DNA of 64,000 bases from Mesotaenium endlicherianum (Eukaryota): contig WELA01003378.1 of the NCBI GenBank assembly GCA_009602735.1, positions 3,712 to 67,711 on the forward strand, read 5' to 3'. Below, in pieces: positions 3,487 through 58,380 of this stretch; positions within the stretch are counted from its first letter, which is position 1, and every line of letters starts with the position of its first letter. Both the position numbers and the translations under genes were made by a program. The notes below the pieces were generated by a model. The model searched no databases, was not told the DNA's origin, and saw only the letters and a list, made by a program, of their open reading frames with translations.

Positions 3487-4024
3487 TGTGCCGACTGCCA
3501 CCCGTGGAGTTTGTAATTATCGGCACCCTTCGTCGCTGTTTTCTCCCCAGAGCGACGCGCTCCTCGCCGTGCAGCTGGCTCGCTCCTCGACCTCTTGTCG
3601 TCCTCCTCCATCGACGCCGCCTCGTTATTTAATGTGACCCCAGGCATTTCCGTCCCCGCTTCGATTCGGCATGCATCGTGTGCGAGCAGCCGTGCAGTGC
3701 AGCAGCTGTTGATGGATTGGAACTGTGCAGGGAGACAATTGAGGGGCTGCACGCACGCAGAAGTTGAGGCAAACCACGACCCACGCAACGTCAGTATCAC
3801 GATAACGGAGACGGTACCAGGCACACACGAGCTTGCGGTGCTCGACCACTCTTGGCCAGCGAGCGAGCCGCTGCTGCATGCCGCTCACACACGGTCCAGC
3901 TGAGGAAGCTCTCCTCGGCTCGTTCGCGCTCGCGCGGCGATTGAGGGAGAGAGGGAGAGGGAGAGATCGGCCGGGCTCAGAAGAGTATCTGCGGGAACGC
4001 GAATCGGATCCCTCACACCCGTAT

Positions 4025-6680: not shown

Positions 6681-6736
<56 letters not shown>

Positions 6737-7804: not shown

Positions 7805-8619
7805 ATCGGCGCGCTCATCCTCGGACGGCAGTGGAGATGTGCTGTTTGCAAGTTTTTGATAATGAGAAAAACAAGAGCATAAGAGCTTAGTTGATGATCT
7901 GGTGTGCAATATGACTGCATTGCAAGTCCCGAGTGGCAGGGCCTTTTTTTGCTACATAACAATCGTTCAGCTGCAGGGTCTTCCTGCTGATTGCTCTAAA
8001 TGCAAATACCGGGCAGGCAAATCGTGTGTGGGAGAATTGGAATGCTGCCGCATTCACACGCATTGCTTGTCAACAATTGAGCACAGAAGATGGCATCAGC
8101 ACAAACCCTTGATCTTGTGCACAGCCCGTGTACCCTCTTTAGGGACCAACATTTCTCTTGCTCACAGCACAACAGCTTGAAAAATCCACTCGCAAGGGCC
8201 TCCCTCATTTCCTGGGCAGGGACGCCAAGTTTTACAGGGCTGACATGCTCGACGCTGTCCTGAACCCTCATTCATGTAACGCGCCCTCACTTCAATAAAA
8301 TTACCTGCTTACGACCCTGCACTACTTGGCTTTCTAGGTTCATAGGGCGATTGTCGACACTATCAGAGCTGGCTTCCGGAGTCCAGTCCGTCACAAGGCT
8401 CCCCCCAGTACTCGATCTCCACTCCTCTCTCTTCGACTGAGTTGAACGTAGTGTGAACAGAGCAGTGGCTGCTTCCCACCGACGAGAAGTAGAAGCTGCG
8501 GTGCAAAAGATCAAAATAAGACATGACTACTTCGCCTCCATCCAGTCTGAAGACCTACAGACGACGTCGCGCACGCGGGAGAGCAGGCCATGATGGACCC
8601 CCGCCCGTCCGCGAGTGTC

Positions 8620-20174
<11,555 letters not shown>

Positions 20175-24016: not shown

Positions 24017-25329
24017 TTAGCACAAGGTATCCCATCGCACCATATATAGTCCTCGGACCATATATGGTCTAGCTAACCCCCACTTTTCAGCATTGACCTC
24101 CAGGGTGCTGCAGTTGACCAAGTGGTACAATCTATGGCTCAAACAAACCGTGCAGACCTTAGGCAAAAAAATACAAATAGGTCTTCTGATCATCAACGAC
24201 AAAATTGTGGTCAAAAGAGTGAGGTTCAAAATTCAGGTTCATAACGAAATTTCATGTGGAAAGTCTGTCATACCCGAGATTACTAAAAAGCTCTTAGAGC
24301 CATGGCTTCTACAAATGCGCCACAAATTGTTGTGGGTGGTAAATGAAATAAATCGACTTACCAAATAGGCGATTAACAATAAATAAAGATCTTTATATCA
24401 GCAAGTAATTTTTATGGTATTTTCTGTTAATCAATTAAACAACAAAGGACAACACACTAGCAGTGGACAATACTCGCAAGTCAACTAGCATCAATAATGC
24501 AATCAGTAAACTCACACATAAGCAAGGCTAGGAGACAGTGCGTATCAATGGCTTCTCGCCTTGGATTCAAACATCTCTCAGTTTGCAGTACATGAAAGTT
24601 GGCCTCGTTTCCGAATGCCGAACTCGAGAGCAATGTCTAGCCTATGTACATGGAATGAGTTTACTGTTCAACGGCCAGTGCGATGGCACCGCCTACCCGA
24701 GAGTTAACCACGTTGGTAGGAATTCGGTCAACCAAATCCACCGCCGTCTCCCATCATCCCGAATCGCCATCCATCCCAAGGATGTCATCTGGCCATTCAT
24801 CTACCAAACCACACTTAGATGCATATTTAGGCAGTTCGCTGCTATCGAGTACGGAAATCAGCTGGCTATCAAAGAATGTGTCAGCAAGCTAACCTAAGTT
24901 GACTTCAGCCGGCTACTCTCAGCTGAGTCATTAAACTGATAAGTATATAAAGTCCTGCAAATTGAATGTTGACTGAAGTTTAGCAGGCTGAACTTAATTA
25001 ACTATTATATGTAAATGAATATTATATCTACCAATATACTGATTCATTACAGATTGAGACAAGCCTTATTTTATGAAGTCCAGCAGACTCAATATTAACT
25101 AAAGTTCAGCAGGCTGAACTTATTTAACTATTTTATTCAAATTATTATTATATCTACGAATATATTGATTCATTACAATCCCTCCAACTTAACATGTTGT
25201 CGCCTCAACAACACTAACACTGGGTACATGGTTCCTTTAGTTGAAAGTGCTGATCTGACTCCCAACACCTTTTGCTTCAACACTGATTCCGGTGGGGATC
25301 ACTAGTAACAGCGTGCTGTCCCTTCCGCC

Positions 25330-26994
25330 CTCAGCCTACTGCCATTAGAAGGGAGATGTCCCTGGGGCCCTATGATGAGGGCAGCCAGACCTCCTCCTGT
25401 CTTAGGGTGACCTGAAGCCTGGGGGATCCGCGTAGGGGCCCCGCGAAGAACGCAGTAACTGGGCTGTTTCCTCCTGCACAGTCTGAAACTGAATGGAGGC
25501 AGCCTTCTCCTGGGCAGCCCTCAAATTGACAGGTACATATACCAGCATCCCAGAAGAATGTTGCATGACATGAGCCAAGGGTACATGCCCTCTCTGCGAG
25601 GGAGATGCAGGCAGGCCTCTGGCTATTTCTCTAGCAGCCCTCCTGTCTGCCCTGTCAGACTAGGTCTCCGTGCTGCAGATGGGCTCTGTCCTCTGGCAAT
25701 TCCAAGCCAAGTGATATCTTCTTCTTCAGCGAGCTGATGGAAGGCCAACCCAGTCTTCTCCCTTACAGGGGATGTGGCAGGTGTCAGGATCACAGCGGGG
25801 CTAGTGTCCTCCTCCTTGCCTTCCTCTTCTTCTTCCTCTGACTCCTCCTCCTCTCCTTCCCCTGGTTCCTCTGAGACTGCTGGGGTCTCTTCTGTCAGCT
25901 GCTCCAGCTCTTCCCGAGAAAAAGAATATCCCACTTCCCCTTTTGGGTGCTGGTGGGGGCTGTTGAGTCCGGACCGCATACAGGTCCTTTTCTCCCTGCT
26001 TGCTTGCCCATTTGGCATAAGCGTGCTTCCCGTTATAGAAAGACTCTTGGGCCCTGCACCTGTCCTCCTGCATTTCTTGGCTCATGCAATCTCTTACTCC
26101 ATCCAATCTTGGGTCCCAAGCTGCAATATGAGGAGGCAACACTACGTTTCCTTGTAGGTCTGTTAGGAAGTCTTCCTCCCTTGCCTTGTCATTTTGCTGG
26201 TCCCTCATGTTGATGGTCATCCACCGCCAATCGGTGGGCTTCTGGAAGAAGGCAGGGTCTGTCCTTTTCAGAGTACAAGGGTACCAGTGCTTTGCAAAGT
26301 CCAGCTGACTGGTTTTCCGCGCCAAAACTTCCCAGCTCCTTCTCTCCACCTTATTATACATGGCCTTGAACCTGTTATGGGATGTAGAGTCCTTAAAACT
26401 GTCCGCGTCCATAGGGATCATCCTGATGACCCTATCCTTCCCCCAGATACCCGTAATCGATACAGCTCCTGCTTCGTTCACCTGGGCCATTACCTTGGCC
26501 TCTCTGACCGTATATCCTACCATCCTGGCATAATCGTGATAGAGGAGGAGTCTAGTGCTGACCTCTACATACTTGTCGAAGTTTTCAAATGTCTCCCCTT
26601 CCCTCTGCAGGATGTCCTGGTATGCCTCACTGCGACTTCTTTGGGCATACTTGAAGGCCTCTTCCAGTAGATCAAAGCCCTTGCCCAGCACTGTGTAGCG
26701 AAAACTACTGATTCTCTTCTGTTCTTCTTCTGCCTGCTGCCTCCGCCTCTCCTCAGCTTGCCTCTCCTCTTCTGCCTTCTTGGCCTCCTCTGCAGCTTTT
26801 TTGTCCAGTTCTTCCTGCCTCAGCCTTTCTTGTTCCTCCTCCTCCTTCTTCTTTTGTGCCTCCCGTTGTTGTTGGAGTTGTTGTGATTCCCGAGCGGAGA
26901 TGGAGGATGATTCGATGTCGCCACGGAATTGCAAGTATTCTGCATGTGCCTCTTCCGCTCTTCTCTTCCTCTTAAGTTCCGACTTCTGAGTCAT
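25330..26994 (-). pseudogene. ORF3 variant 2 of family A (unknown protein, frameshifted in its C-terminal third; 3' limit approximate)
   Basis: ATG 26994 directly after acceptor CAG|G. Shares YRYTV/FRYTV, DYA.MVGYT, YN.VERRSWE.LAR, HW.PC.L, PTDWRWMT, PPHIA.WDPRL.G and, in a shifted frame near 25620-25520, ARGLPASPSQRGHVPLAHV with ORF 49229-50905. Confidence 0.88.
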
Positions 26995-27351
26995 CCTGCT
27001 CAATCATAAACACAATGCAGTCAGTGAAGTCATGATACTTTGCCGCTACTGAGTGCCCGTGGTGAAGAAGAACGTGATAGGGAGAGTCCCTAGTGTGTAG
27101 TACCTTGTATGAGTGAGTATAAGAGAGAATTGAGTTCGAGAGAAAAAGTGAGTATGAGCGCAGGTTGAGTGTGTAGAATGGTTATAAAATTCGCCTGGCT
27201 GATCCCAAAACGGAACACACTCCCTCCAACTTAATTGTAAGGTGGGTTGCCCTTCACAACTATCACTATTTGTCACTAACTGTCACATTCCCCTCCGACT
27301 TATATGGAGACAGGACCTCCTGTCACCTGTCCATGTCCACTGAAATGACAA

Positions 27352-37145: not shown

Positions 37146-37889
37146 ACTGTCATTGCAGTTGACGGGGACAGATGACAGGAAGTCCTGTCTCCATTTAAGA
37201 TGGATGGGCAGGTGACAGAAAGTGACAGTTTAGTGACGATTGTGACCAACAGTCCGTCAAGCCATTAAGATGGAGGGATTGTGACATCTTTTTGATAGTC
37301 AGGAAGCTGCCCTTACAAATATAAACTCACATTCAACCGCACTGTAACTCACTCATCACAGTGTTACATTCTTGGAAATACCTCTGTGTCAGGCTTATCA
37401 CTCCCACTCACTCCTCTCGCAAGGTAAATTAGGACAGGTTGTAACTACGTTCTTGCCCATTATGCCTCTACGGGTGTCCCATTATGCCTCTTCGGGTGTC
37501 CTGTACTCTACTCCTATACTAACTGAGCTATTGCATGTGTGAGCAGGATGACCAAACGGAAGAACGAACTTAACAGTAGATGGCTCGGTGCACCCTATAG
37601 GGTGCATATGACATATTTGGGTGCATGTATAGACCCCTCTAGTACAGGCCGCCATTTACTGTGTAGTTATCCATTTTCACTAAAATTAAGCTTAAACGAT
37701 TGCAAATGTCGCCGAGTAGCCGAGAATAAATTGGCGACCAAATCCGACGAGTTTTCACAAAGTTACAAGTGAAAACGTACACCCTCTGAATCGGTCTGAG
37801 CAAAAAATGAAACAGCGAATCTGCTAACTTTTGCGAGAAAGAAGAAGGAGAGCCTCTTCTTCTTCAAAACCTTTCTTACTCAATCCGCC

Positions 37890-40800: not shown

Positions 40801-41004
40801 TGTGACGTTTCCCTTTGTGCAGCACTTTGCTTTCATGTGTACCACACTAATAGAGCTATAGAGCACCTAGATTTAGGACCTAGGAAGAAGCTAGGCAAAA
40901 TTAGGGATTTTGACAATTTTGTAAGACTCGCGTATATTTTCCTATTGTTCATGTCTGGTGCTATATGCAGTATGAAGTATATGCCATGTGTACGTAAGTG
41001 TTAA
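37890..41004 (+). pseudogene. piggyBac-family DDD transposase, interrupted by a solo LTR and in-frame stops
   Basis: MSRNRFKEIRRYFH, LTIDER|TIF..YNPSKPYKYG, VVDRGFTS, WQDKK, YNLYKDAVDQYD, KWWHR and C-terminal CFHCDVSLCAALCFHVYH. Confidence 0.92.
39093..39840. mobile_element. Solo LTR of an unrelated family, 748 bp, TSD AGAGA
   Basis: TG...CA ends, AGAGA at 39088-39092 and 39841-39845. Excision restores the transposase frame (IDER|TIFIRNR). Confidence 0.92.
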
Positions 41005-41876
41005 CGGGTGCCTGCATTGACAGTTGAATTTAAAATTTTCATTACCATGGATTATAAGCATTATTTCATGTGTCATTTGGGAAATAAAGAATTTTTGGAC
41101 ATCATTAATTTATTTTTTCAATTAAAAATAAAAAAGAACACACCAGTGGGAAGACAAGACTGTACTTGTGTTGTGTATAAAACATCTTGACAAAAAACAT
41201 GATGAAATGCTCACAAAGAATGTATATGTACTTGACACTATTTGAGATCAAAATGCACCCGAGAAAAAGAGGCGCTCCTATGTGGGTGCATGTCCTTGGA
41301 TAGTTGTATCTTTGTCAATACTTCTCATATTAGTCCAAGATTTAAGGTACTCACTCATCATATGATAGGGCAGCCCTGGTCTAAATCCCAGGCCCTCAAG
41401 TATTGGCAATTACGAGATACAATGTCTCAAAGTTGGAGAAATATCGCGCGCTTATTCCAACATTATTAAATGCCATTTAAGTCATTACTAAAATTATATA
41501 TTAAATATAGAAGGTACGAAACCAGAAACCTTATGATGTGTACTTCTCGAAAAACTGATTCATGGCCCCATTGGACTTGTATTGTGAGCTATAGAAATTC
41601 CCAACCATGTGCTCAAAACGCACCCAAAAGTGTCAGTTCCACTGAGCCATCTAGTGTTAAGAGGAAGAGGAAGGCCAACCAGGCCCGGCAACAGTATCAA
41701 GAAGTCCAGGAGGACATTGAAGCCACTTCACTTTTAGGACGGGAGGTAGAACGGCAACAATTCAAGAAGGAGGCCAAGAAGAAAAGGGAAGATGAAGAAA
41801 GGGCCAGGAAAGAGGAGGGGGACGGGAAAGCTGAGGAGGCCAGACTCAAAAAAGCTAAGGAGGACGGGAAGGCTGA

Positions 41877-42565
41877 TATGATGAATCAGCATATTACTAG
41901 ATATAATATTCATTTAAATATAGTATTTAGTTCAGTCTGGTGAATCTTAGTAAATATTTTGGTTTGTTGGACTCTAAGTTAAATTCAGTATAATGACTCA
42001 GTCGAGGGCAGCAAGCTAAAGTCACCTTAGGTCAGCTTGCTGACACATTCTTTGACAGCCAGCTAATTTCCGTACTCGGTATCAGTTAATTTCCTAGATA
42101 TGCATCTATGTGTGATATCCTAGATGAATGGCCAGAGGACACCCTTGGATGGATGGCGATTCGGGATGATGAGAGATGGTTGTGGATGTGGTTAGCCAAA
42201 GTCCTACCGACGTGGTTAACTCCCAAGTAGGCGGTGCCATTGCACTCGCCGTCGAACAGGTTAGGTCATGCTCTCAAGTTCGGCATTTGAAAATAAGGCC
42301 AACTCTCTTGTACCGCTTACTGAGAGATATCTGAATCCAAGGCGAGAAGCCATTGATGCGAACTGTCCTCTGGCTGTGCTTATGTTAAGTTTGCTGATTG
42401 CATGATTGATGCTGATTTAGTTGCATTTGACTTCTAAGTACTGAAATGCTAGTTGTGGAGTCTTTGCTGATTACTAAATAACTAGATTAGAACTTAAATA
42501 TTACTTGCTGATATGAAGATCCTTTATTAATTGTTAAGCGCCTATCGGTAAGTCGATTCCTTTCA
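41877..42565 (+). mobile_element. Diverged solo LTR, family A (TSD GCTGA/ACTGA)
   Basis: TATGATGAATC...GATTCCTTTCA, homologous throughout to family A LTRs. Flanks match at 4 of 5 positions. Confidence 0.88.
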
Positions 42566-43639
42566 ACTGAGAAGGAGAGGCTGAGTAAGGCAGAAGAGGA
42601 AGCGAAAGTTCCAACTGGAGAGCTATCGCTATACAGTCCTGGGCAAGAGATTTGACCTTCTGCAGGAGGCACTGAAGTTTGCCCAGGAAAGCAGGGCAGC
42701 ATATCAGAGGGCAACCCTGCAAAGAGAAGGAGAGGGAGCTACACTCTGAGATCGGTATGGTCCAAAACGGCAAAAAACGCCCCAGACGTCGATCTCCGCC
42801 CATCTCCGCCCAAGGCGTAAACCTATTTGTCTCCACCTGTGTGCCTGAAAGTGGAGAGGTTTTCAACACTTTTCTCCACCCGTGTGCCTGAAGGTGTAGC
42901 AGATTTTAGCAATAAACGTGTAATGAATCAGTATATTAGTAGATATAATATTCATTTAGATATAATAGTTAATTAAGATCAGCCTGCTGAACTTTAATTA
43001 ATAGTCAGTCTGCTGGACTTTATATAATTATCAGTTTAATGACTCAGTCGGAAGCAGCAGGCTAAAGTCAACTTAAGTCAGCTTGCTGACACATTCTTTG
43101 ACAGCCAGCTGACTTCCGTACTCGGTAGCAGCGAACTGCCTCGATATGCATCTAAGTGTGGTATGCTAGATGGATGGCCAAATGACATCCCTATGATGGA
43201 TGGCGATTCGGGATCATGGGAGATGGCGGTGGATTTGGTTAACCGAGGTCCTACCAACGTGGTTAACTCCCGGGTAGGCGGTGCCATCGCACTGGCCGTT
43301 GAACAGTAAACTCATTCCATGTACATATGCTAGGCAATGCTCTCGAGTTCGGCATTCGGAAACGAGGCCAACTCTCTTGTACAGCTTACTGAGAGAGATC
43401 TGAATCCAAGGCGAGAAGCCATTGATACGCACTGTCTTCTAACCTTGCTTATGTATGAGTTTACTGATTTGCATTCTTGATGCTAGTTTACTCTCATTTG
43501 GCTGACGAGTATTATTCACTGCTAGTGCGTTGTCCTTTTGCCGTTAAACACTTAACGGAAAGTACCATAAAGATTACTTGCTGATATAAAGATCTTTATT
43601 AATTGTAAATCGCCTATTTAGTAAGTCGATTCATTTCAG

Positions 43640-43651
43640 TGGTATCGGAGC
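43640..43651 (+). promoter_or_regulatory. Primer-binding site for tRNA-iMet
   Basis: TGGTATCGGAGC one base after the LTR CA; canonical is TGGTATCAGAGC, so one G-U pair. Also at 53286 and 59127. Confidence 0.9.
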
Positions 43652-43672: not shown

Positions 43673-45151
43673 ATGGTAAGGACAAGGTCTCAAACTAGCA
43701 ACTCCCGAGACATGGAGAACCAGGATAACGAGAATGTCGAAAACCAGGCGGAAAGCCATGTAGCGGGAAACCGTACCTATTCGGAAGCAGTAGCGGATAC
43801 TGCAGCTAGGGAGGCTGCAGATGAGGCAGCTGCTATTGCCTCAGTCGCAGCTCAGCAAGCTGAGGAGGAGATAGCCAGACTAGAAGCTGAACAAGTAGCA
43901 AAGGCCGCTGAAGATATACAAAGGAGGGAAGGACAGCCAGCTGACGAGCGCACTGTTGAAGAACTTATGGCATCAAGGGCCAATGTTCTGAACCCACCTC
44001 CTGCCGTACAACTCAATGTACCCCTAGGTCAAATACGTGACCGGCTGAATGCGGCAGGAATTGCTGCTGCAGGAGCAAGAGGGATTGTTGAGGACACTAC
44101 TCAGCGAGTAGATGCCAATGCTGCTGCTGCATTTGCTAATCTACCACCCCAAAATGTAGACTTGGGAGCATTGTTCGTTCAGATGCAGTCGCAAATGGCG
44201 ACCATGTATCAGTCCCAGCAGGAGGACAAAAGAATCATAATGTCCCTACTCCGGGACAGAGACCAACTGGGGTCTCACACCACTAGTGGTGGTGGCCGAG
44301 GGCCTAGTAAGCCCAAGCCGAAACCTCCCCAGGACTATGATCCTGAGGGAAACAGAAAATATTACCTGATCAAGTTTCTCGCGGATGTTGAGCAGTGGCT
44401 GGAGAACTACCCAGAACTGCAAGATTACGAGAAGGTCAGGCACACCGGTGCGCTACTGAAAGGCAGTGCCGCAGACTGGTGGCTTTACTGGAAGGAAGAG
44501 CGTAAGGCTCGGCAACTCGGTGACCCTACGTGGGTAGAGTTTGTCGAGAAGTTGCATGAGAAGTTTGATGTCATCAACCAGCAGGAGAAAGCTATCTATG
44601 CGATGATCTCCCTGACACTGAAGCAGACCACTTCAGTTGCTGAGTTTGCTCAAAAGTTCCAAGAGAACATGATGAAGCAGCCTGATTTGCCAGAACGGTA
44701 TAGGATAGCATACTTCAGGTATGGCTTGAAATCCGAGGTCTCTGGTCATTTTGCTGAGAAAAAGTATGAGAAACTGGCTGACTTGATCCAGGATGCTGAC
44801 GCCTGGGATCAGCAGCAGTTCAATCACAAGCGCCAGAGTAACGCTTTGGTGTCTAAGATTGTCAAAAAGCCCCACGGTTCCTACAATGCAGTTGAAGGAG
44901 ACCAGGCTGAGGATAATCAGGGTGATGAATATGAGTATGAGTACAATGCTATTCAGTCTAGAGGTAGAGGTGGTCCCTCTCGAGGTGGCTATGGAAGGGG
45001 TGGTGGTAGGACTAAGCCGAGACCAGCCTCAGCAAAATCTACTTGCTACCATTGTCAGCAGAAAGGCCACTACAGAGAACAGTGTCCGGTCAAGCACCTG
45101 CCTAAGGTCGAGAGAAAAGACCAGCCTTTAAAAGACAGCAACAGTCAGTAA
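43673..45151 (+). CDS. gag: Gag (492 aa) with CCHC zinc knuckle
   Basis: [41 protein letters not shown] tract, [14 protein letters not shown]. Confidence 0.95.
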   Translation: MVRTRSQTSNSRDMENQDNENVENQAESHVAGNRTYSEAVADTAAREAADEAAAIASVAAQQAEEEIARLEAEQVAKAAEDIQRREGQPADERTVEELMASRANVLNPPPAVQLNVPLGQIRDRLNAAGIAAAGARGIVEDTTQRVDANAAAAFANLPPQNVDLGALFVQMQSQMATMYQSQQEDKRIIMSLLRDRDQLGSHTTSGGGRGPSKPKPKPPQDYDPEGNRKYYLIKFLADVEQWLENYPELQDYEKVRHTGALLKGSAADWWLYWKEERKARQLGDPTWVEFVEKLHEKFDVINQQEKAIYAMISLTLKQTTSVAEFAQKFQENMMKQPDLPERYRIAYFRYGLKSEVSGHFAEKKYEKLADLIQDADAWDQQQFNHKRQSNALVSKIVKKPHGSYNAVEGDQAEDNQGDEYEYEYNAIQSRGRGGPSRGGYGRGGGRTKPRPASAKSTCYHCQQKGHYREQCPVKHLPKVERKDQPLKDSNSQ

Positions 45152-48100
45152 TCCAGTCTACTGACTGTGAGGATGCTAGAGATAGTGAGTCGTCACTAGC
45201 TGCCCTCGTAGCAGGTATTATGGGTCCTGCTGAACTGGATTCACTATGCATGCCTGACAACCAGATAAAGGAGACCATCAGCAATATAGACGTCCAGAGA
45301 GTGCACACTCTGGATGCCCTTGTTCAACCTGATGTCCAACATTTATTTGCTACGTCATTAGAACAATGCGAAAGTCAGGAAAAGACAGTCCCCCCTATCC
45401 TACTGCATTGCATGATTGCAGGTAGGAAGGTGAGAGCATTTGTTGACGGAGGGGCGTCACATACTTTTATCCACAAGGACTTAGTTAAGCGGCTAAGGCT
45501 GCCTACTGTCACCCAAGGGAATAGAAAAATATTCCTTGGAGATGCCTCAAGTATCCCGGGAGGAGTTATAACCAAGCCTATTGAGGTCCAGTTAGGTTCT
45601 GGCATTGCAGTTCTAACTGAAACGCTTACATTTGAGGTACTCAACACTGGTTTCTATGATCTCGTGCTAGGCACGTCTTGGCTTATTAGACATCAAGCTG
45701 AAGTGTGTTGGAGCAGACGTACAGTTAAAGTGAGAGGAGCCAATGATGGGCAGACTGACTTGGCACCCACCAGTGCTCTTCCTCTTGTCCTGTGTGGATG
45801 GCACATGAAGGAAAAGAAGAGGCTTCCAGAAGGATGCAAGTTGCTGAATGCAATGGAGTTCGTCAAAAGCTGGAACCAGAANNNNNNNNNNNNNNNNNNN
45901 NNNNNNNNNNNNNNNNNNNNNNNNNNNNNNNNNNNNNNNNNNNNNNNNNNNNNNNNNNNNNNNNNNNNNNNNNNNNNNNNNNNNNNNNNNNNNNNNNNNN
46001 NNNNNNNNNNNNNNNNNNNNNNNNNNNNNNNNNNNNNNNNNNNNNNNNNNNNNNNNNNNNNNNNNNNNNNNNNNNNNNNNNNNNNNNNNNNNNNNNNNNN
46101 NNNNNNNNNNNNNNNNNNNNNNNNNNNNNNNNNNNNNNNNNNNNNNNNNNNNNNNNNNNNNNNNNNNNNNNNNNNNNNNNNNNNNNNNNNNNCAAAATGG
46201 NNNNNNNNNNNNNNNNNNNNNNNNNATCCTATTTGTTAAGAAAAAGGATGGCAGTATGCGGATGTGTGTGGATTACAGAGCCCTGAACAGAATTACAGTA
46301 AAGAACAAGTATGCTTTACCCAGAATCGAGGACTTGCTTGATACCTTGTTTGGCGCTAAAGTGTTCAGTAAGATAGATCTCAAGAGTGGTTATCATTAAA
46401 TCAGAATTGCTGAGGGGGATGAACACAAGACTGCTTTCCGCACACGTTATGGACACTATGAGTTCAACGTGATGCCATTTGGACTGACTAATGCTCCTGC
46501 TACCTTTATGGGTGCTATGAATGACATTTTCAGACCTTATTTGGATAAGTTTGTGCAAGTTTTCCTGGATGATATTTTAATTTTCTCTAAAGATGAAGCT
46601 CAGCACACTGAACACTTAAAGAAAGTGCTGGACACTCTGCGGAAAAATCACTTGTATGCTAAAATGAGCAAGTGTGATTTCTTTAAGGAAAGTATTGAAT
46701 TCTTAGGCCACGTTGTCAGTAAAGAGGGCATCAGTGTGGATCCTAAGAAAGTCCAGACCATAAGGGACTGGCCAGTACCACAGTCTGTCTCTGAAGTTAG
46801 ATCCTTCCTCGGGTTGGCTAACTACTATAGGAGATTTATTGAGAATTATTCCACAAAGGCCAGTAAACTGACTGACCTTACTAAGAAAGACATCGGGTAT
46901 GTGTGGGGGGAAGAGCAGCAGGCTGCCTTCCAGACCCTTAAAGATGCCCTTTGTTCTGCCCCAGTGCTAGCCGTGTATGACCCCAGCAAACCGGTGCAGG
47001 TGGTTACTGATGCCTCTGATTTTGCCATGGGTGCTATTTTGTTGCAGCCTGCTGACAAAACCACAAAGGATGGTAAGGTACGGCAGGAGTGGCATCCTGT
47101 GTTGTATGAGTCTATGAAATTTAATCCAGCGGAGATTAATTACTCAGTGCATGATAAAGAGCTGCTAGCTATCATTCATGTACTCAAACAGTGGAGAGCA
47201 TACTTACATGGTAAAGCTTTTAAGGTGATTACAGATCATCTAGCTCTGACCCACTTTCAGAAGAAGTCCAAGCTGTCGAGGAGGGAGAACCGCTGGAGCC
47301 AGATGCTGGAGCAGTTCCAAGTCCAGATCGACTACAAACCAGGGAAGTTGAATCCTGCTGATGCACTCTCTAGAAGACCTGACTTGCAAGAAAGGAACTT
47401 TAGTCAGCATACTGTAGATAAAGTCCTGTGTGCACTCACTTCACTAAAGGTGAAAAAGTCCTTCCTTGAACAACTTAGGAAAGCCTACCTTTCTGACCCA
47501 ACATTTGAGCCCAGCCCCACTACTGGTATGTGTCGTGCTACCGCACTCGGGTATAAGCTCAAGGGAGGGGTCTGGGTGACTGAAACCACTTCAGGCAGGC
47601 TGAAGCTGGTCATTCCTAATAATTTGGAAATAAGGTCTCTCTTACTGAGTCAAGCTCATGACAGTCTCCTGGGTGGACATTTGGGGCAGGCCAAAACTGT
47701 TGGCAAACTGGCAAAACATTATCATTGGGAGGGGTTACCCCGGGAGGTCTTGAAATATGTCAAGTCCTGTGACCAGTGTCAGAGAAATAAGTCTCGGCAC
47801 ACACCACCCGGAGGTCTCTTGCAACCGCTACCCATCCCAGCGGGACGCTGGGAAACTATATCCATGGACTGGGTGGTCTCACTACCAAGAACTGCCAACG
47901 GGCATGATTCAATACTGGTAGTCGTGGATAAACTGACAAAAATGGTCATTTTTATCCCCACAACTGTCAAAGTGACTGCACTCGAAACAGCGAGACAGTT
48001 TTACAACCATGTAGTATGCCAACATGGGCTCCCTTCTAATATCATCTCAGACAGAGACTCAAAATTCACCTCTAAGTTCTGGAGAGCTTTAATGGGGTTA

Positions 48101-48961
48101 ATGGGAGTCAAACAGCTGCTCAGCACAGCAAACCACCCTCAGACTGATGGGCAGACTGAAAGAACTAACCGAGTTCTGCAGGAGGTGCTGAGAGCATATA
48201 TTAACCAAAAACAAGATAATTGGGATGACCTGTTGCCTCAAATTCAGTTTGCGGTCAACAGTGCGGTGCACGCGTCAACGGGCAAAACTCCTTTTGAACT
48301 CAGCCTGGGTAGAGTCCCTAAGTCTCCTCTAGATGTGCTAGGGGAATCTTTAACTCACCCTGAAGGGATTGACAACCCGGTCTCCCTCCAGTTAACTCAG
48401 GAGTTTGCTGACACCCTGTCAGAAGTCCAACGAAACTTGCACACGGCCCAAGAAAACCAACAAAAATACGCTAATCAACACCGTCGGGAACTGACATTTT
48501 CCAAGGGGGATTTAGTCAAACTGCATTCTCAGCACCTGTACCTCCCTGGTGTGGTCAAGAAAAAGCTTGGCCCTGTCTGGGTCGGTCCATATTCGGTGGT
48601 CCGTCGTGTCGGTCAGAATGCTTACAAACTGAACATGTCAGCTGAATACAAGGGGCACCCGGTCTTTAATGTCTCCTTCCTGGAACCGTACATCAAAGGT
48701 GATACACTGTTCACAGGTCGGTTCCCTGTCCAACCGGGACCGGTCCCCGCTGTCCGGGACGGCGACCCTGAGGAATATGAGGTCGATGAGATTTTAGACG
48801 CTCGCTCGGTCCGTCGATCGTCTAAATATGTCATGAAATACCTCATTCGATGGAAGGGTTACGATGCCTCTGGGGACACTTGGGAGTTTAAGGACCACTT
48901 GACCAATGCCAAAGGGGCGTTGACACGGTTCCACCTTCGGGCCGCTGGAGTCCCTCCATAA
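45127..48961 (+). pseudogene. pol: Pol in -1 frame to gag (PR-RT-RH-INT-chromodomain); one premature stop at 46397-46399 and an N gap
   Basis: All Ty3/gypsy motifs in order. TAA replaces the CAA seen in the 61.86-kb copy. C-terminal chromodomain [25 protein letters not shown]. Confidence 0.93.
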
Positions 48962-49228
48962 CTGTCATTTCAGTTGACACGGGAAGGTGACAGGCGGTCC
49001 TGTCTCCATTTAAGTTGGAGGGGAAAATATATGACAGTTAGTGAGCGAGAGCGATAAAAACACACTCATACGTTTATGTGTAGCGCATCGCAACTACGTC
49101 AACTTTTAGCAATCATCCTGTAAGGTAAACAGCAGCGAAGCCACTATACTAAATACTAACATACTTCCTGCAATCCCTATGACAAAGGTCCATATCCTAC
49201 TAACTTGTGCCCTGGTTACATGTGCAGG

Positions 49229-50905
49229 ATGGCGCCCACCACACAAAAGGAGGACAGAAAGCGCAAGGCAGAAGAAGCCAGGAGGACAATGGAGCAATAC
49301 CAGAAGGAGCTGGCGGCGACGTCCCTCACCAGGAGAGAACAAGAAAGGGTCCGCAAACAACAAGAGGCGGCAGAAGAGGCACAGAGGAAGAAGGATCAGG
49401 AAGCGGAAAACCTCAGGAAGGCTGAGGAGGAGAGACAGAAGAAACAGCAAGAAGAAGCGGCAGCGGCAGAAGAGGAGAAAAGAAAAAAGATTGAAGCGGA
49501 CAGACAGAAGAGCTTGGCCACTTACAGGTATACTGTGGTGGGTGGCCAAAACTTCGATAACCTGAAGGAAGCATTGCTGGCAGCCCAGGAGATCAACAGG
49601 CTGGAACAGACAACACTGCTACAGAAGGAAGGAGCTACAGCACTGGACAGGTACATCGAGACACACACCGGCGTGGTCCTTTACGAAGATTATGCTAAGA
49701 TGGTGGGCTATACAGCAGAGCAGGCCCGGTATCTCGCAGATGATTCAGAGGACAAGCCGGTCCCCATACCGGGAATAGTGGGAGATCAGAGACTCATCCG
49801 GATGGTGAGCATGCGGCCCGATAGCTTTAAGGATACGGTATTCTACCTCACACTCCTGCCAGCTTACAATGAAGTTGAGAGAAGGAGCTGGGAGTACTTG
49901 GCCAGGGAAGCAGGACAGCAGATGTTCTCTCCCCACTGGTTCCCGTGTAAACTGAGGAAGGCTGAGCACGGACCCCAGTACTACCAGCAGCCAACAGACT
50001 GGAGGTGGATGACCGTCACAAATAAGAAGCAGGAGTGTGACCGAGCCCAACCGGATGACTTCCACTATGGCCTAGACGGCTATCTCATCCTACCACCTCA
50101 CATTGCCCCTTGGGACCCCAGGCTGAATGGATGCCTGAGCAATATGAATGCAGAGACCAAGGAACATAGGAGGAGGGGAAGAGACTACTTCTCTAAGGGA
50201 AAGCATGCCTTTGTCAAATGGGCAAAGAATGCAGGCCGGATAGATATCAGTAGGCTGAAGGCCAAGCAACCTCCAGCGCGCCCTAAGAAAGGGAGGTCGG
50301 TAGACTACTCCATGTCTACTAGGGAGCAGGACGACTTAGTGGACGAGACCCCTACTCTCTCCGAGGAGGAGGATGAGGAGGATGAGGAAGAAGAACAAGG
50401 CAGAGGAGAAGCATCAGCAGCAGGTACTCAGGATACCCAGGGAGAGGCAGTGGCACTTCCTAAAGAACCACGATCAGGTGTGTGGAATGTGATCCCCGTT
50501 ATGGCGACAACTGGACCCCGCGCTCGCTCCCCCAGCCCACCTGCCCAAGCAGGGGAAGAAGCTGATCTGACGGTACTGGGCAGCAGACACAGACAGAAAT
50601 CCCCAGAGGACAGGGGTGCCAGAAGAGGGACACGCGGGTGGGCCAGAGGTATGCCAGCCTCCCCCTCCGCTCAGGGGCATGTACCTCTAGCCAATGTATT
50701 TCAGCATCCTACTGGAATGCCTGTCTATGTGGGAATCAACACCCAAATAGTTGAAGAGCAGGCCACCATCCTCCGTTCTCCCCGAGGGCCAACTTTAGAG
50801 CAAACAGGGTTCTTTAGAAGGCAAGCTGACAGACCTAGAGGGCTGTCCAGATCTAGGTCCAGATCTCCGTCTCCTGATCCTGAAGCACCAGGAACAACCC
50901 CTTAA
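49229..50905 (+). CDS. ORF3 variant 1: intact 558-aa protein of unknown function in the 3' region of the retrotransposon
   Basis: Open frame with ATG right after the acceptor of predicted intron 49125-49227. Basic motif plus E/K/R/Q coiled-coil, Trp-rich core, acidic tract and RS/SP tail; homologous to two other variants in the window. Confidence 0.88.
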   Translation: MAPTTQKEDRKRKAEEARRTMEQYQKELAATSLTRREQERVRKQQEAAEEAQRKKDQEAENLRKAEEERQKKQQEEAAAAEEEKRKKIEADRQKSLATYRYTVVGGQNFDNLKEALLAAQEINRLEQTTLLQKEGATALDRYIETHTGVVLYEDYAKMVGYTAEQARYLADDSEDKPVPIPGIVGDQRLIRMVSMRPDSFKDTVFYLTLLPAYNEVERRSWEYLAREAGQQMFSPHWFPCKLRKAEHGPQYYQQPTDWRWMTVTNKKQECDRAQPDDFHYGLDGYLILPPHIAPWDPRLNGCLSNMNAETKEHRRRGRDYFSKGKHAFVKWAKNAGRIDISRLKAKQPPARPKKGRSVDYSMSTREQDDLVDETPTLSEEEDEEDEEEEQGRGEASAAGTQDTQGEAVALPKEPRSGVWNVIPVMATTGPRARSPSPPAQAGEEADLTVLGSRHRQKSPEDRGARRGTRGWARGMPASPSAQGHVPLANVFQHPTGMPVYVGINTQIVEEQATILRSPRGPTLEQTGFFRRQADRPRGLSRSRSRSPSPDPEAPGTTP

Positions 50906-51003
50906 GGTGACACGCTGAAGAGGCAGTCAGTAAGGGAGGCTGGTCAGGATCAGTTTCTTTATTTAAAGCTTTTGCAGTTTAATGTTGTCGAGGCGACAAC
51001 AAG

Positions 51004-51018
51004 TTAAGTTGGAGGGAT
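51004..51018 (+). promoter_or_regulatory. Polypurine tract
   Basis: TTAAGTTGGAGGGAT directly before the 3' LTR TG; same at 52421-52435 and 25192-25178 (-). Confidence 0.85.
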
Positions 51019-51830
51019 TGTAATGAATCAGTATATTAGTAGATATAATATTCATTTAAATATAATAGTTAATTAAGTTCAGCCTGCTGACCTTTAGTTA
51101 TTAGTCAGTTTGCTAGACTCTAGTTAATAGTCAGTTTGCTGAACTTTACTTAATAGTCAGTCTGCTGGACTTTACATAATTATCAGTTTGCTGACTCAGT
51201 GGAAAGCAGCAGGCTGAAAGTCCATATAAGTCAGCTTGCTGACACATTCTTTGACAGCCAGCTGACTTCCGTACTCGGTAGCAGCNNNNNNNNNNNNNNN
51301 NNNNNNNNNNNNNNNNNNNNNNNNNNNNNNNNNNNNNNNNNNNNNNNNNNNNNNNNNNNNNNNNNNNNNNNNNNNNNNNNNNNNNNNNNNNNNNNNNNNN
51401 NNNNNNNNNNNNNNNNNNNNNNNNNNNNNNNNNNNNNNNNNNNNNNNNNNNNNNNNNNNNNNNNNNNNNNNNNNNNNNNNNNNNNNNNNNNNNNNNNNNN
51501 NNNNNNNNNNNNNNNNNNNNNNNNNNNNNNNNNNNNNNNNNNNNNNNNNNNNNNNNNNNNNNNNNNNNNNNNNNNNNNNNNNNNNNNNNNNNNNNNNNNN
51601 NNNNNNNNNNNNNNNNNNNNNACGCACTGTCTTCTAACCTTGCTTATGTATGAGTTTACTGATTTGCATTATTGATGCTAGTTTACTCTCATTTGACTGA
51701 CGAGTAGTATTCCCTCCTATTGTATTGTCCTTTGCCGTTTAACGAGTTAACGGAAATACCATAAAGATTACTTGCTGATATAAAGATCTTTATTAATTGT
51801 TAATCCTATTTGGTAAGTCGATTCATTTCA

Positions 51831-54800
51831 GATACCCAGGGACAGGCAGTGGCACTTCCTAAAGAACCACGATCAGGTGTGTGGAATGTGATCCCCGTTA
51901 TGGCGATAACTGGACCCCGCGCTCGCTCCCCCAGCCCACCTGCCCAAGCAGGGGAAGAAGCTGATCTGACGGTACTGGGCAGCAGACACAGACAGAAATC
52001 CCCAGAGGACAGGGGTGCCAGAAGAGGGACACGCGGGTGGGCCAGAGGTATGCCAGCCTCCCCCTCCGCTCAGGGGCATGTACCTCTAGCCAATGTATTT
52101 CAGCATCCTACTGGAATGCCTGTCTATGTGGGAATCAACACCCAAGTGGTTGAAGAGCAGGCCACCATCCTCCGTTCTCCTCGAGGGCCAACTTTAGAGC
52201 AAACAGGGCTCTTTAGAAGGCCAGCTGACAGACCTAGAGGGCTGTCCAGATCTAGGTCCAGCTCTCCGTCTCCTGACCCTGAAGCCCCAGGAACAACCCC
52301 TTAAGGTGACACGCTGAAGAGGCAGTCAGTAAGGGAGGCTGGTCAGGTTCAGTTCNAGGTCAAGTTCAGCTACCTTATTTAAAAATTTCTGCAGTTTAAT
52401 GTTGTCGAGGCGACAACAAGTTAAGTTGGAGGGATTGGAATGAATCAGTATATTAGTGGATATAATATTCATTTCAATATAATAGTTAATTAAGTTCAGC
52501 CTGCTGAACTTTAGTTAATAGTCAGTCTGCTGGACTTTACATAATTATCAGTTTAATGACTCAGTCGAAAGCAGCAGGCTGAAAGTCCATATAAGTCAGC
52601 TTGCTGACACATTCTTTGACAGCAAGCTGACTTCCGTACTCGGTAGCAGCGAACTGCCTTGATATGCATCTAAGTGCGATATGCTAGATGAATAGCCAGA
52701 TGACATCCCTATGATGGATGGCTATTCGGGATGATGGGAGATGGCGGTGGATTTGGTTAACCGAGGTCCTACCAACGTGGTTAACTCCCGGGTAGGCGGT
52801 GCCATCGCACTGACCGTTGAACAGTAAACTCATTCCATGTACATATGCTAGGCATTGCTCTCGAGTTCGGCATTCGGAAACGAGGCCAACTCTCTTGTAC
52901 AGCTTATTGAGAGAGATCTGAATCCAAGGCGAGAAGCCATTGATACGCACTGTCTTCTAACCTTGCTTATGTATGAGTTTACTGATTTGCATTCTTGATG
53001 CTAGTTTACTCTCATTTGGCTGACGAGTAGTATTCCCTGCTAGTGCGTTGTCCTTTTGCCGTTAAATAGTTAACGGAAAGTACCACAAAGATTACTTGCT
53101 GATATAAAGATCTTTATTAATTGTTAATCGCCTATTTAGTAAGTCGATTCATTTCATTTATTCACTGCTAGTGTGTTGTCCTTTGCCGTTTAACAAGTTA
53201 ACGGAAAATACCATAAAGATTACTTGCTGATATAAAGATCGGTATTAATTGTTAATTGCCTATTTGGTAAGTCGATTTATTTCAGTGGTATCGGAGCCTT
53301 TATCACAGTCTTCTTTGTATTGTAAGGACAAGGTCTCAAACTAGCAACTCCCGAGACATGAAGAACCAGCATAACGAGAATGTCAAAAACCAGGCAGAAA
53401 GCCTTGTAGCGGGAACCCGTACCTATTCGGAAGCAGTGGCAGATACGACAGCTAGAGAGGCTGCAGATGAGGCAGCTGCTATTGCCGCAGTCGCAGCACA
53501 GCAAGCTGAGGAGGAGAGAGCCAGACTAGAAGCTGAACAATTAGCAAAGGCCGCTGATAATACAAAAAGGAGGGAGGGACAGCCAGCTGACGAGCGCACT
53601 GTTGAAGAACTTATGGCATCAAGGGCCAATGTTCTGAACCCACCTCCTGCTGTACAACTCAATGTACCCCTAGGTCAAATACGTGACCGGCTGAATGCGG
53701 CAGGAATTGCTGCTGTAGGAGCGAGAGGGACTGTTGTGGACACTACTCAGCGAGTAGATGCCAATGCTGCTGCTGCATTTGCTAATCTACCACCCCAGAG
53801 TGTAGACTTGGGAGCATTGTTCGTTCAAATGCAGTCGCAAATGGCGACCATGTATCAGTCCCAACAGGAGAACAAAAGAATCATAATGTCTCTACTGCGG
53901 GACAGAGACCAACAGGGGTCTCAAACCACTAGTGGTGGTGGCCGACGGCCTAGCAAGCCCAAGCTGAAACCTCCCCAGGGATATGATCTTGAGGGAAACA
54001 AAAAATATTACCTGATCAAGTTTCTCGCGGATGTTGAGCACTGGCTGGAGAACTACCCAGAACTGGAAGATTATGAGAAGGTCAGGCACACCGGTGCGCT
54101 ACTGAAAGGCAGTGCCACAGACTGGTGGCTTTACTGGAAAGGAGAGCGTAAGGCTCGGCAACTCGGTGACCCTACGTGGGGAGAGTTTGTCCAGAAGTTG
54201 CATGAGAAGTTTGATGTCATCAACCAGCAGGAGAAAGCTATCTATGCGATGATCTCCCTGACACTGAAGCAGACCACTTCAGTTGCTGAGTTTGCTCAAA
54301 AGTTCCAAGAGAACATGATGAAGCAGCCAGATTTGCCAGAACGGTATAGGATAGCATACTTCAGGTATGGCTTGAAATCCGAGGTCTCTGGTCATTTTGC
54401 TGAGAAAAAGTATGAGAAACTGGCTGACTTGATCCAGGATGCTGACGCCTGGGATCAGCAGCAGTTCAATCACAAGCGCCAGAGTAATGCTTTGGTGTCT
54501 AAGATTGTCAAAAAGCCCCACGGTTCCTACAATGCAGTTGAAGGAGACCAGGCTGAGGATAATCAGGGCGATGAATATGAGTATGAGTACAATGCTATTC
54601 AGTCTAGAGGTAGAGGTGGGTCCTCTCGAGGCGGCTATGGAAGAGGTGGTGGTAGGACTAAGCCGAGACCAGCCTCAGCAAAATCAATTTGCTTTCACTG
54701 CCAGCAGCCAGGTCACTTCAGAGAGCAATGTCCAGTCAAGCACCTTCCTAAGGTCGAGAAAAAAGACCAGCCTTTAAAAGACAACAACAGTCGGTAATCC

Positions 54801-55679: not shown

Positions 55680-58380
55680 TAGTCAGCCCAAAAGGCATGA
55701 CTGTGAATTCAAATAAGCCATAGCGAGTCCTGAAAGCAGTCTTCTGAACGTCTCCTTCCGCAATTCGTACCTGGTGATAGCCACTCCTCAAATCAATCTT
55801 CGAGAAATACTTCGCCCCGACAAGCCTGTCAATCAACTCGTCCACTCGTAGAAGTGGGAACCTGTTTTTGATGGTGACCTTGTTGAGTGCTCGATAGTTG
55901 ACACACATCCTCGTTGTAGTGAAACAGATAGATGAAGTACTTAGTGAAATGTAATACTTTATCTATTCAAGACAAGGATCTTTGAACACAAGTGGTAGCT
56001 TCTTGAAAGAGAGATGGCTTCTTGAAAGTTAATATATGTCTGGAGTTTGGCAAGTACAAGAGTGATTCTGGAATGTCTTTCTATGTTCTAGCTCTTGTTT
56101 ATATACTTGCTACATAAGTAATTTCTAGGAAAGTGTATGTTGATGTGTTGGCACCCAACACATCCCAAAACTTGCCACCTCTTTCTAAAATAATGTACAC
56201 ATGTCCTTTTGACCTAAAAATGGCACATCTTACTTTTGCCACATGGAGTTCTTCTAGGTCTTTCCTCTAACTTCGAAAATGCCTTGGAAGGTTCAAAGGA
56301 CATGAACCAAGTTACTAGAGTACCTATTCACACTTGACTCCACACATTACTACTCCAAATATATTTGAAAACATTAAAATATATGCAAACTAATATATAA
56401 TAACTCAAATCACTACACTCGTAGTCGCATCCTTCTTCTTCACAAATAAGACTGGCGCTGCAACTGGAGACTCGCTGGGTTTGATGAATCCCTTCTCCAA
56501 TAACTCTGTCAGCTGGTTCTTCAACTCATCCAACTCCGCTAACGATTGACGATAAGCGGGTCTCACAGGTGGCTTGCTCCCTGGTTCCAACTCGATCTTG
56601 TGCACCATAGCTCTCTGTGGAGGTAGTCCTGCAGGTAGCTTCTCAGGTAAAACGCACTTGAACTCCTCCAACAGCGCCTTAATTTGGGCAGGCATCTCAG
56701 CAGGCTTCTTCTCTTGAGCAGGTGGGCTCTGCTCCATCTGAGCAAGGGGATCAGACACCACTACTTGCTCCTCCGACGATGTACATTTGCCCAGGCTGTT
56801 AGGATTCACGCTTGCTCCATCTGATGACCTGGCCAGGACCACCGAAACAAGGTACATCTCCTTCACCTGATTCGTCCTGCATAGCTTCTTAACTTGCAGG
56901 CTCGACAGAAGACAGTTACTTATGGTCGTATCTACCTCCACCTGTTTCGCTGTCTCCATTCGACCATCACGCCCTTGGGCTTTCACTTGTCTTGTGCTCC
57001 AGTGCACTTAAGGGTTGGCTTTTCTGAGCCATGGTCGGCCCAATATCACCTCATGGTGACCCAACTCTGCCTGCTCCATAACTTCCTTACTCCGGTGCCC
57101 GCTACTTCCACGTGAATAGCTTCCGTAGGTGCACCACACTTGAGTCTTTGCCCATTCGCCACAATTGCCTCTTTAGGCTCATTATGCTTCGGCACAGGGA
57201 TTTGCCACTCTTTCACCAGCTTCTTGTGCACAAATTTTGCACTTGCGCCACTGTCGACCATACACTTCGCCTTGTTGCCGTCGACCACTCCTTCCACGAT
57301 GATAGGCTTGTCAACGTCTCGTCCTTTGCTTCTCGGCAGGCTCCTGAGGATTACCTCCTTGTGAGTTCTCGTCTTCACGCCAGTAGACACCCCAGAACGA
57401 CTTACTGGCGTCCTCCTTTTTCCTGCTGTTGAGGTTGCTTCGCCTTCAAATGACAGTCTCNCTTCGCCTTCAAATGACAGTCTCAAGCCAGATGTCCAAG
57501 CTTGCCACAATTATAGCAGGGTCCTCTCGGCTTGTAATTCTGCTGCCTGCGCTAGTTCTGAACAAGTCCCAACTCCTTAGGTACTGGACCTTGAACACTC
57601 GTGCTTGGCGCTTGAGGTCCAAAATGTCGATATCCTCCAAAGTTGTGGCTGCCCCACTGCCTCTGACTATACTCCACAGTATCGACCCTTGTTGCCAATG
57701 CCATCATTTCTCCAAGACTGGTTGGGTCCTTGAGCGCCACTTCCTTGGCCACAGTTGGCTTGAGTCCCCTCTTGAACTTGTCCATCATCTCCGACTCATG
57801 CATGGATGGACATTGAAGCACCAGCTTGTTAAAGCGCGAAACATACTCCTGAACTCTTGCTCGTTGACGAAGGCGCACCAATAGATCTCGAGCGGTAGCC
57901 TCGTGTGCAATAGGTTGAAATTGCCTCTTCAAGCCTTCAAATAGCTGATCAACAATAGCTGGAACTCCAGACAGCTGCTCCTGTCGCTCATACCAAGCTC
58001 CAGCACCCTTCTGCAGCAAAGTTATGACAAAGGCGACTTGCCTGTCTCGCGTGAGCGCAGAATACTCTATAAACTTCTTCACTCCAAAAATCCATCGATG
58101 AACAGGCGGCGATCCACGCTCTCCAGTATACACTTCAGGCTTAGGCGCACGCACTCCCGATGCGGGTGGAATAACTGGTTGCACCACTGGGTTAACATGA
58201 ATTGGTGGTACAACAGGTGCAGGTGCCGAACTCGTCGAAGCGGCATTCCCAACAACAACTCGCACCATTCTCTCCACTTCCTGGCGCATATTTTGTTGAA
58301 ACTATGTGTAGACTTCTTCTCCAATTGCGTTTGCCATCTGCCTCAACATCGCCTGCATCTCTTGTTGTTCCCTTGACAAA
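55680..58380 (-). mobile_element. Second Ty3/gypsy family (B), truncated degenerate gag-PR-RT
   Basis: Gag 58289-57552 (PKPEVYTGER..LRQ..KFKRGLK), CYNCGKLGHLA*DC knuckle, [47 protein letters not shown]. Confidence 0.92.
55915..56417. mobile_element. Solo LTR of a third family, 503 bp, TSD CTCGT
   Basis: TGTAGTGA...TCACTACA perfect 8-bp terminal inverted repeat; CTCGT at 55910-55914 and 56418-56422; inserted in the family B RT. Confidence 0.95.

Follow-up and report, generated by a model that had tools for sequence, protein, structure and literature searches.

A hairpin and PPT duplicated around an orphan gene in a Mesotaenium chromovirus: a probable ancestral 3' signal and candidate internal primer

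Why should an LTR retrotransposon carry the signals of its 3' end twice, behind pol and again before the 3' LTR, with an additional gene between them? This question is raised by a stretch of 64,000 nucleotides (the window), of which the right two thirds are a cluster of one LTR retrotransposon family, present in three variants. The assembly has gaps and duplicated LTR pieces here, and our comparison within the family covered the copies in the window and two read layouts. The family carrying the additional gene, ORF3, is a Ty3/gypsy chromovirus of the green alga Mesotaenium endlicherianum. Its gag is followed by protease, reverse transcriptase (RT), RNase H and integrase in this order (Pfam), the integrase ends in a C-terminal chromodomain (PF00385, E 1e-8), and TG...CA LTRs, a primer-binding site (PBS) and a terminal PPT are all present. 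The closest named relatives of pol are Closterium proteins with 40-51% identity. Variant 1 contains the following features.

42919..43638 (+), 5' LTR, TGTAAT...TTTCA, 720 bp
43640..43651 (+), PBS TGGTATCGGAGC, which we take to be of the initiator-Met type
43673..45151 (+), gag with Ty3 capsid and CCHC knuckle (Pfam)
45220..48961 (+), pol with protease, RT, RNase H, integrase, SH3 and chromodomain, broken by an assembly gap at 45882-46225
48986..49007 (+), internal hairpin, core 48989-49004
49010..49024 (+), internal PPT1, core identical to that of the terminal PPT (13/13), no TG after it
49032..49053 (+), TGACAG-repeat stub just 3' of PPT1
49125..49227 (+), GT-AG intron of 103 nt in the leader of ORF3; the ATG follows after one base
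49229..50905 (+), ORF3, 558 aa, with a charged N-terminus, a Trp-rich conserved core (about aa 92-346) and an acidic and low-complexity tail
50983..51001 (+), terminal hairpin TGTTGTCG-AGG-CGACAACA
51004..51018 (+), terminal PPT TTAAGTTGGAGGGAT, with the TG of the LTR at 51019
51019..51830 (+), 3' LTR, with an assembly gap at 51286-51621

The corresponding features of variants 2 and 3 are listed below.

27289..27327 (-), variant 2, internal hairpin (core 27324-27309) and PPT1 (27303-27289, 11/15)
27220..27234 (-), variant 2, second internal PPT, 14/15, with TGTG next in register
26996..27103 (-), variant 2, predicted leader intron, 108 nt, from sequence only
25351..26994 (-), variant 2, ORF3, 397 codons open to 25801, frameshifted near the 3' end
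25178..25214 (-), variant 2, terminal hairpin and PPT; one C-to-T change gives a G-U pair; PPT 15/15
37174..37209 (+), variant 3, internal hairpin (37174-37189) and PPT1 (37195-37209, 11/15)
37265..37279 (+), variant 3, second internal PPT, 14/15, with TGTGACA next in register
37424..37546 (+), variant 3, predicted leader intron, 123 nt
37548 (+), variant 3, ATG of ORF3; later insertions break the gene

Two insertions lie inside ORF3 of variant 3. A piggyBac-like transposon (PF13843) at 37570-41660 sits in the first codons, with TTAA on both sides and 17-bp inverted ends that differ at two positions, and an older solo LTR of the same family at 41878-42565, 81-83% identical to the others, has a near-matching 5-bp target duplication. 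At 51831-53284 an LTR is followed by a 3' part of ORF3, a terminal module, a further LTR and an incomplete LTR repeat, which is either a tandem product or an assembly artefact. A fragment of a second, distant gypsy family (gag and protease) lies at 56405-58380 (-) and is cut by an LTR at 58381. Elsewhere the window holds GC-rich host genes at 3800-20000, namely a C2H2 zinc-finger gene and an ion-channel gene, the latter with ion-transport Pfam domains and an exon 100% identical to a known protein. A tandem repeat of 329 bp occupies 416-2055, and extended runs of G around 15156-16143 are probably assembly filler.

The first-pass annotation had described a hairpin and a PPT-like tract behind pol of variant 1, and both are there. 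The hairpin GACAGG-CGGT-CCTGTC (48989-49004) begins 28 nt and the tract TTAAGTTGGAGGGG (49010-49023) 49 nt behind the pol stop, pol ending at 48961, in non-coding DNA. The same hairpin arms occur in all three variants with the loops CGGT, AGGT and AAGT in variants 1, 2 and 3, respectively. The two internal PPT-like motifs reported for each of variants 2 and 3 were likewise recovered, at 27303-27289 and 27234-27220 and at 37195-37209 and 37265-37279. The best match of the spacer behind pol to the terminal 15-mer was 13, 14 and 14 of 15 in variants 1 to 3, which was reached by 0/2000 dinucleotide shuffles in each variant. Each hairpin alone was non-significant, as 68-94 of 1000 shuffles were as good (z -0.6 to -1.6); its weight comes from conservation and position. 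No hairpin of this kind accompanies the second internal PPT of variant 2 or that of variant 3 (84 and 54 of 200 shuffles). A TG closely following most internal PPTs, as proposed earlier, was found in register only behind these second PPTs, whereas AAATATA follows the motif at 49010. Searches for the internal hairpin and PPT pattern gave no match in metagenome contigs, and Rfam gave none either.

TGACAG/GTGACA repeats lie behind PPT1 in four types of the element, and an acceptor-like TCATT(T/G)CAG stands directly behind the pol stop in all three variants. The sequence TCATTTCAG at 48965-48973, behind the pol stop, recurs at the junction of LTR end and PBS, e.g. at 43631-43641, and resembles a splice acceptor. 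The likeness of TCATTTCAG(TGG) to this junction exceeded shuffles in variants 1 and 2 (19 and 6 of 2000) but not in variant 3 (533/2000), and 3' parts of LTRs contain a donor-like GTAAGT. Behind the second PPT of variant 3, an 89-bp segment (37280-37368, TGTGACA...TGTTACA) looks like a miniature LTR, the 3' end of which is absent from the other variants.

The internal signal had been said to mirror the 3' end of the element. This holds for architecture and spacing, which the two modules have in common, and not for the stem sequences, which are unrelated. In variant 1 both stems stop 17 nt before the LTR-start position, and among the modules in the window the stems end 16 to 21 nt before it. 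As internal and terminal stems share no sequence, a long separation is implied.

Comparison of the variants speaks for constraint on the internal module. In the 62 nt behind the pol stop, 48/62 positions are invariant in the three variants compared with 99/178 four-fold sites (p 0.0016), and in the hairpin block 48988-49009 the count is 20/22 (p 0.0004). PPT1 alone, with 10/14 positions invariant, was not above neutral (p 0.18); of the two, the hairpin is the more conserved. PPT1 has decayed to 11/15 in variants 2 and 3, where the second internal PPT stands at 14/15, and every variant retains one good internal PPT (13-14/15, n=3). Between variants 2 and 3 the second internal PPT with its TGTG is identical at 17/19 positions (p 0.016), and the DNA behind it barely aligns (35/500 shuffles as good). 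Family-wide conservation, on which the first-pass annotation had made its interpretation depend, extends to all 3/3 variants in the window and to a fourth type in two public runs (X8 and X5), which matches variant 1 through 49023 and then continues with its own TGTGACAG repeats. The internal module is thus probably under selection and does not look like a dead relic, and with moderate confidence we take the selection to be for priming. The functional internal primer of the first-pass annotation thereby gains indirect backing as a candidate role.

Where the module came from is suggested by more distant chromoviruses. Among 99 related loci, 70 reach the chromodomain and 63 have a stop with at least 30 nt behind it; 37 of these gave a call of a PPT followed by TGT and 26 gave none. 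The LTR starts are heuristic calls and not LTR pairs, some loci are near-duplicates (L036 and L038), and loci in prokaryote genome records were taken as stray eukaryotic contigs. A callable PPT lay at most 100 nt from the pol stop in 24/37 relatives, and a hairpin preceded it in 18 of these 24, compared with 41/240 control windows in pol (Fisher p 9e-9). The loop contained GG in 17/18 of these hairpins, which the scoring did not demand, and the stem ended 16-21 nt before the TGT in 15/18. The internal module of the algal family agrees with the relatives in position, spacing and loop (CGGT and AGGT; AAGT deviates). Because a PPT near the pol stop with a hairpin is common in relatives, the order pol, hairpin, PPT would be the usual chromovirus end and the ORF3 cassette with its second module an addition. 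By its position the internal module is therefore very probably the ancestral 3' signal. The earlier proposal of a relic of the ancestral PPT and LTR with the cassette appended behind it is borne out in this respect by position and hairpin. Its LTR part is not, since no relic of the present LTR follows: the sequences behind the internal PPTs showed no homology to the family's present LTR in 5/5 segments (30-489 of 500 shuffles as high). Among 13 hand-picked relatives with the module 141-1768 nt behind the stop, none had a duplicated PPT (best 19/200 shuffles), so the duplication is unusual in this sample. In four loci (L092, L066, L089 and L019) the 0.6-1.8 kb between pol and PPT hold antisense ORFs of 101-381 codons, and the PPT is not duplicated.

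The gene enclosed by the two modules is without detectable kin. No relatives were found for ORF3 in a word-indexed protein search, it belongs to no Pfam family, a metagenome scan gave none and Atlas matches did not exceed 0.85. A two-sequence ORF3 profile run against 1.84 billion proteins gave a lone marginal match to a repeat-rich protein, which we judged spurious. No membrane segment of the env-like kind was predicted (top 19-residue hydropathy 0.73 and 0.69), and the AlphaFold model of the core reached a mean pLDDT of 37. A GT-AG leader intron ending in CAG-G-ATG is found in all three variants. One contig of run X1, a run whose type we guessed to be DNA, skips the 103-nt intron with 23 letters on its short side; among the joints listed for the covered stretches, which do not include the 5' LTR, this local one was the only splice seen for ORF3. 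In three poly(A) runs that carry the species label of X1, of which 6-12% each was covered, no reads fell on ORF3 of variant 1, though some fell on pol and LTR; the other ORF3 types are too divergent to map. We also considered a two-way promoter on the basis of antisense reads over the 3' end of pol (47747-49049) and rejected it, as these reads are few, mostly 90-95% alike and from a diverged copy that enters unrelated DNA at 48563. Reads opposite to the LTR reads occur at a low level over 47047-49049 in a diverged copy, with a minus-strand intron-like joint at 47047-47207 (run X23).

ORF3 differs far more between variants than its surroundings. Between variants 1 and 2, four-fold sites are identical at 99/111 positions in gag, 280/333 (84%) in pol and 15/51 (29%) in ORF3 (p 5e-15); the LTRs are 88-90% identical and the ORF3 proteins 44%. 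Pol groups variant 1 with 2, whereas by leader layout and ORF3 pieces variant 2 goes with 3 (59-60% vs 53-55% nucleotide identity). The homology of variants 1 and 2 stops at about 49044-49050 and resumes at about 50975. An independent contig (run X7) covers 48952-49598 with one difference, so the junction of variant 1 is real and no assembly chimera. Judged from these patterns, ORF3 cassettes have likely been exchanged between subfamilies. The first-pass annotation had proposed the module as a template-switch point for such exchange, of which the exchange itself and boundaries about 20-30 nt from both modules find support. The left boundary, however, lies 20-30 nt 3' of PPT1, away from the hairpin and from the point where cleavage is expected, and because conserved sequence next to a divergent cassette would give boundaries of this kind under any mechanism, nearness is no proof of a causal role. 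An ORF3-less junction from 49023 to 51019 was seen neither among the 15 joints listed of 124 nor in one further listed joint. Template switching in retroviruses can be favoured by hairpins, and displaced pieces of the plus strand have been proposed as a source of recombinants, as stated in the available part of PMC3187697. That the modules actively promote exchange here is conceivable, though we rather doubt it.

Taken together, we favour, if modestly, the reading that the module at 48989-49024 is the original chromovirus plus-strand priming signal, left behind pol when the orphan ORF3 with its own hairpin and PPT joined downstream, and that it is still selected as a second, internal plus-strand primer. 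An ancestral relic and a functional primer are compatible, and the evidence favours both together. On this reading, the old hairpin and PPT would have stayed behind pol, and an intron-led orphan ORF3 and a second module would have been added downstream. During minus-strand synthesis the enzyme would pass PPT1 and then meet the hairpin, and RNase H would spare the PPT1 tract, which could then prime plus-strand DNA across the ORF3 cassette in the manner of the Ty1 or HIV central PPT. As the internal product of variant 1 lacks the TG attachment end, it would form no element end. The DNA behind the internal PPT may have turned into the promoter and spliced leader of ORF3. Crossovers would occur between co-packaged RNAs of the subfamilies, and since the two modules would be the last conserved islands flanking the cassette, they would resolve there and ORF3 types would be swapped. 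The RT must fit its own PPT, according to the accessible part of PMC5371799.

Some of the evidence would also fit a different task. The module may be of ancestral origin and its hairpin and TGACAG repeats may act as an RNA element, in packaging or pausing, or as part of the ORF3 promoter or of splicing, in which case the PPT-like letters would ride along or be refreshed by short conversion from the terminal PPT. The stronger conservation of the hairpin block (20/22) than of PPT1 (10/14) points this way, as do the leader intron reaching up to the ORF3 ATG and the acceptor-like sequence behind the pol stop in all three variants and the repeats after PPT1 in four types. Against an internal primer stand a PPT1 that alone is not above neutral and the missing hairpins at the best PPTs of variants 2 and 3; besides, no central PPT is known in Ty3 itself, as far as the available parts of the literature go. 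Nevertheless, neither a promoter nor packaging needs a match to the terminal PPT, and the second internal PPT has been kept amid diverged flanks with its TG in register. We hold such another task to be possible but on balance unlikely.

That the old PPT and LTR start are neutral and have merely not decayed yet, while already weakened, is considerably less probable. The ancestral position would be expected of such a relic, PPT1 has changed at 4/15 positions in variants 2 and 3, and TGTGACA, a usual chromovirus LTR start (as in locus L042), follows several internal PPTs. The block is, however, conserved above four-fold sites, and the 13/13 match survives even though synonymous sites of ORF3 are saturated; neutral remains of the same age as the cassette types should therefore be gone. 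The presence of two internal PPTs in each of variants 2 and 3 suggests that joining happened more than once, and the TGTGACA...TGTTACA segment of variant 3 has a TATA-like motif inside. Both would suit the capture of a miniature or non-autonomous element, made up of a short LTR, ORF3 and a PPT, that fused behind pol, with the internal PPT and TG as its start and the cassette types as independent captures. To this we give a slight chance. Variants 1 and 2 lack the 3' terminus of the segment, a clear PBS does not follow, and the homology of all ORF3 types, together with their common intron layout, speaks for a single origin.

The favoured reading, an ancestral signal kept as an internal primer, has partial counterparts elsewhere. 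The sugar beet Tekay chromovirus Bongo3 carries an additional PPT, 'PPTa' (PMC3605345). Like the algal element, it has a second PPT directly 3' of the chromodomain at the pol stop and a functional one before the 3' LTR; unlike it, Bongo3 is one family of 16 and the part of the article available mentions neither an ORF or a hairpin nor a selection test or exchange, whereas the algal hairpin and PPT module is duplicated around a 558-aa ORF. As described in the accessible parts of PMC7197481 and PMC3187697, the central PPTs of Ty1, HIV-1 and Arabidopsis EVADE are internal PPT copies that prime plus-strand DNA without making an element end. The algal family resembles them in having a near-identical internal copy of its terminal PPT (13-14/15 in every variant). 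In contrast to theirs, which lie in coding sequence and were shown experimentally, the algal copy is known from sequence, non-coding and 2 kb from the 3' LTR; PPT1 lies behind the pol stop and not centrally within the pol coding sequence. According to the available part of PMC2829016, Sireviruses and Athila4/Calypso have extra PPTs in the linker between pol and LTR, in elements with an added ORF. Their role is unclear there, although they are argued to be under selection, perhaps aiding recombination, and an inverted repeat has been suggested as an aid to PPT processing. Sireviruses are copia elements, and 56/63 of the extra PPTs follow the env-like gene without the inverted repeat, which encloses the terminal PPT (PMC2829016, as far as available). 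The algal extra module, by contrast, precedes the ORF and its own hairpin lies wholly upstream of the PPT; the domain order is that of gypsy, the extra PPTs stand on the pol side of ORF3, and PPT1 is accompanied by a hairpin.

It is common for an ORF to be added behind pol (PMC7264820 and PMC6317226, available in part). ORF3 resembles the extra ORFs of other LTR retrotransposons in its unassigned function, place and orientation, high divergence and, as is often the case, splicing. It differs from them in the lack of an env-like membrane segment and of detectable relatives, in its local leader intron and in the coexistence of several ORF3 types on near-identical gag-pol backbones. A duplicated hairpin and PPT are not mentioned in the available parts of PMC5408684, PMC2864245, PMC11381356, PMC9289625, PMC13570524, PMC3059260 and the S. 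osmophilus preprint, and none of the papers listed in one literature search mentions Mesotaenium. We did not find the combination of a hairpin and PPT duplicated around an exchanged orphan gene described in the literature searched, though further papers and supplements may hold it; the single features are known.

A hairpin with a GG loop and variable stem stands before the LTR start in many unrelated chromoviruses (L007, L021, L042, L044, L054, L060, L068, L075, L088 and others), and the terminal hairpin at 50983-51001 in the window is of this kind. In a hairpin alignment (A3), the pair counts came to 79% paired with covariation above 500/500 shuffles, counts that are partly circular because the rows were picked for having hairpins. 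No description of a GG-loop hairpin before the chromovirus PPT was found in the literature, and the PPT alignments supplementing PMC3605345 and the S. osmophilus preprint may show one; a search for PPT-associated hairpins outside Sireviruses is urged in the accessible part of PMC3601003. Speculatively, this hairpin might be a lineage-wide chromovirus ruler: it would stall the RT at a constant distance of 16-21 nt beyond the start of the LTR and thereby make RNase H cut the PPT in register. The algal family would then have duplicated ruler and primer together. The ORF3 cassette would thus become a plus-strand segment that is copied separately and passes from one subfamily to another, and the element would contain its own exchange system for an accessory gene that diversifies. 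We regard this extended model as unlikely. A simple ruler fits imperfectly, as the distance from the end of the stem to the TG is 16-21 nt, or 14-19 nt with two bases in between; the two active sites in Ty3 are about 13 bp apart (PMC5371799, available in part).

For the family, the duplicated module would give a concrete route by which an LTR retrotransposon gains an extra gene, with the old 3' signal staying behind pol and a new one behind the passenger. It would also provide a testable case for the role of extra PPTs in plant retrotransposons, since selection and cassette exchange are measurable here. Beyond this alga, the GG-loop hairpin may be a general priming signal and a handy marker for annotation.
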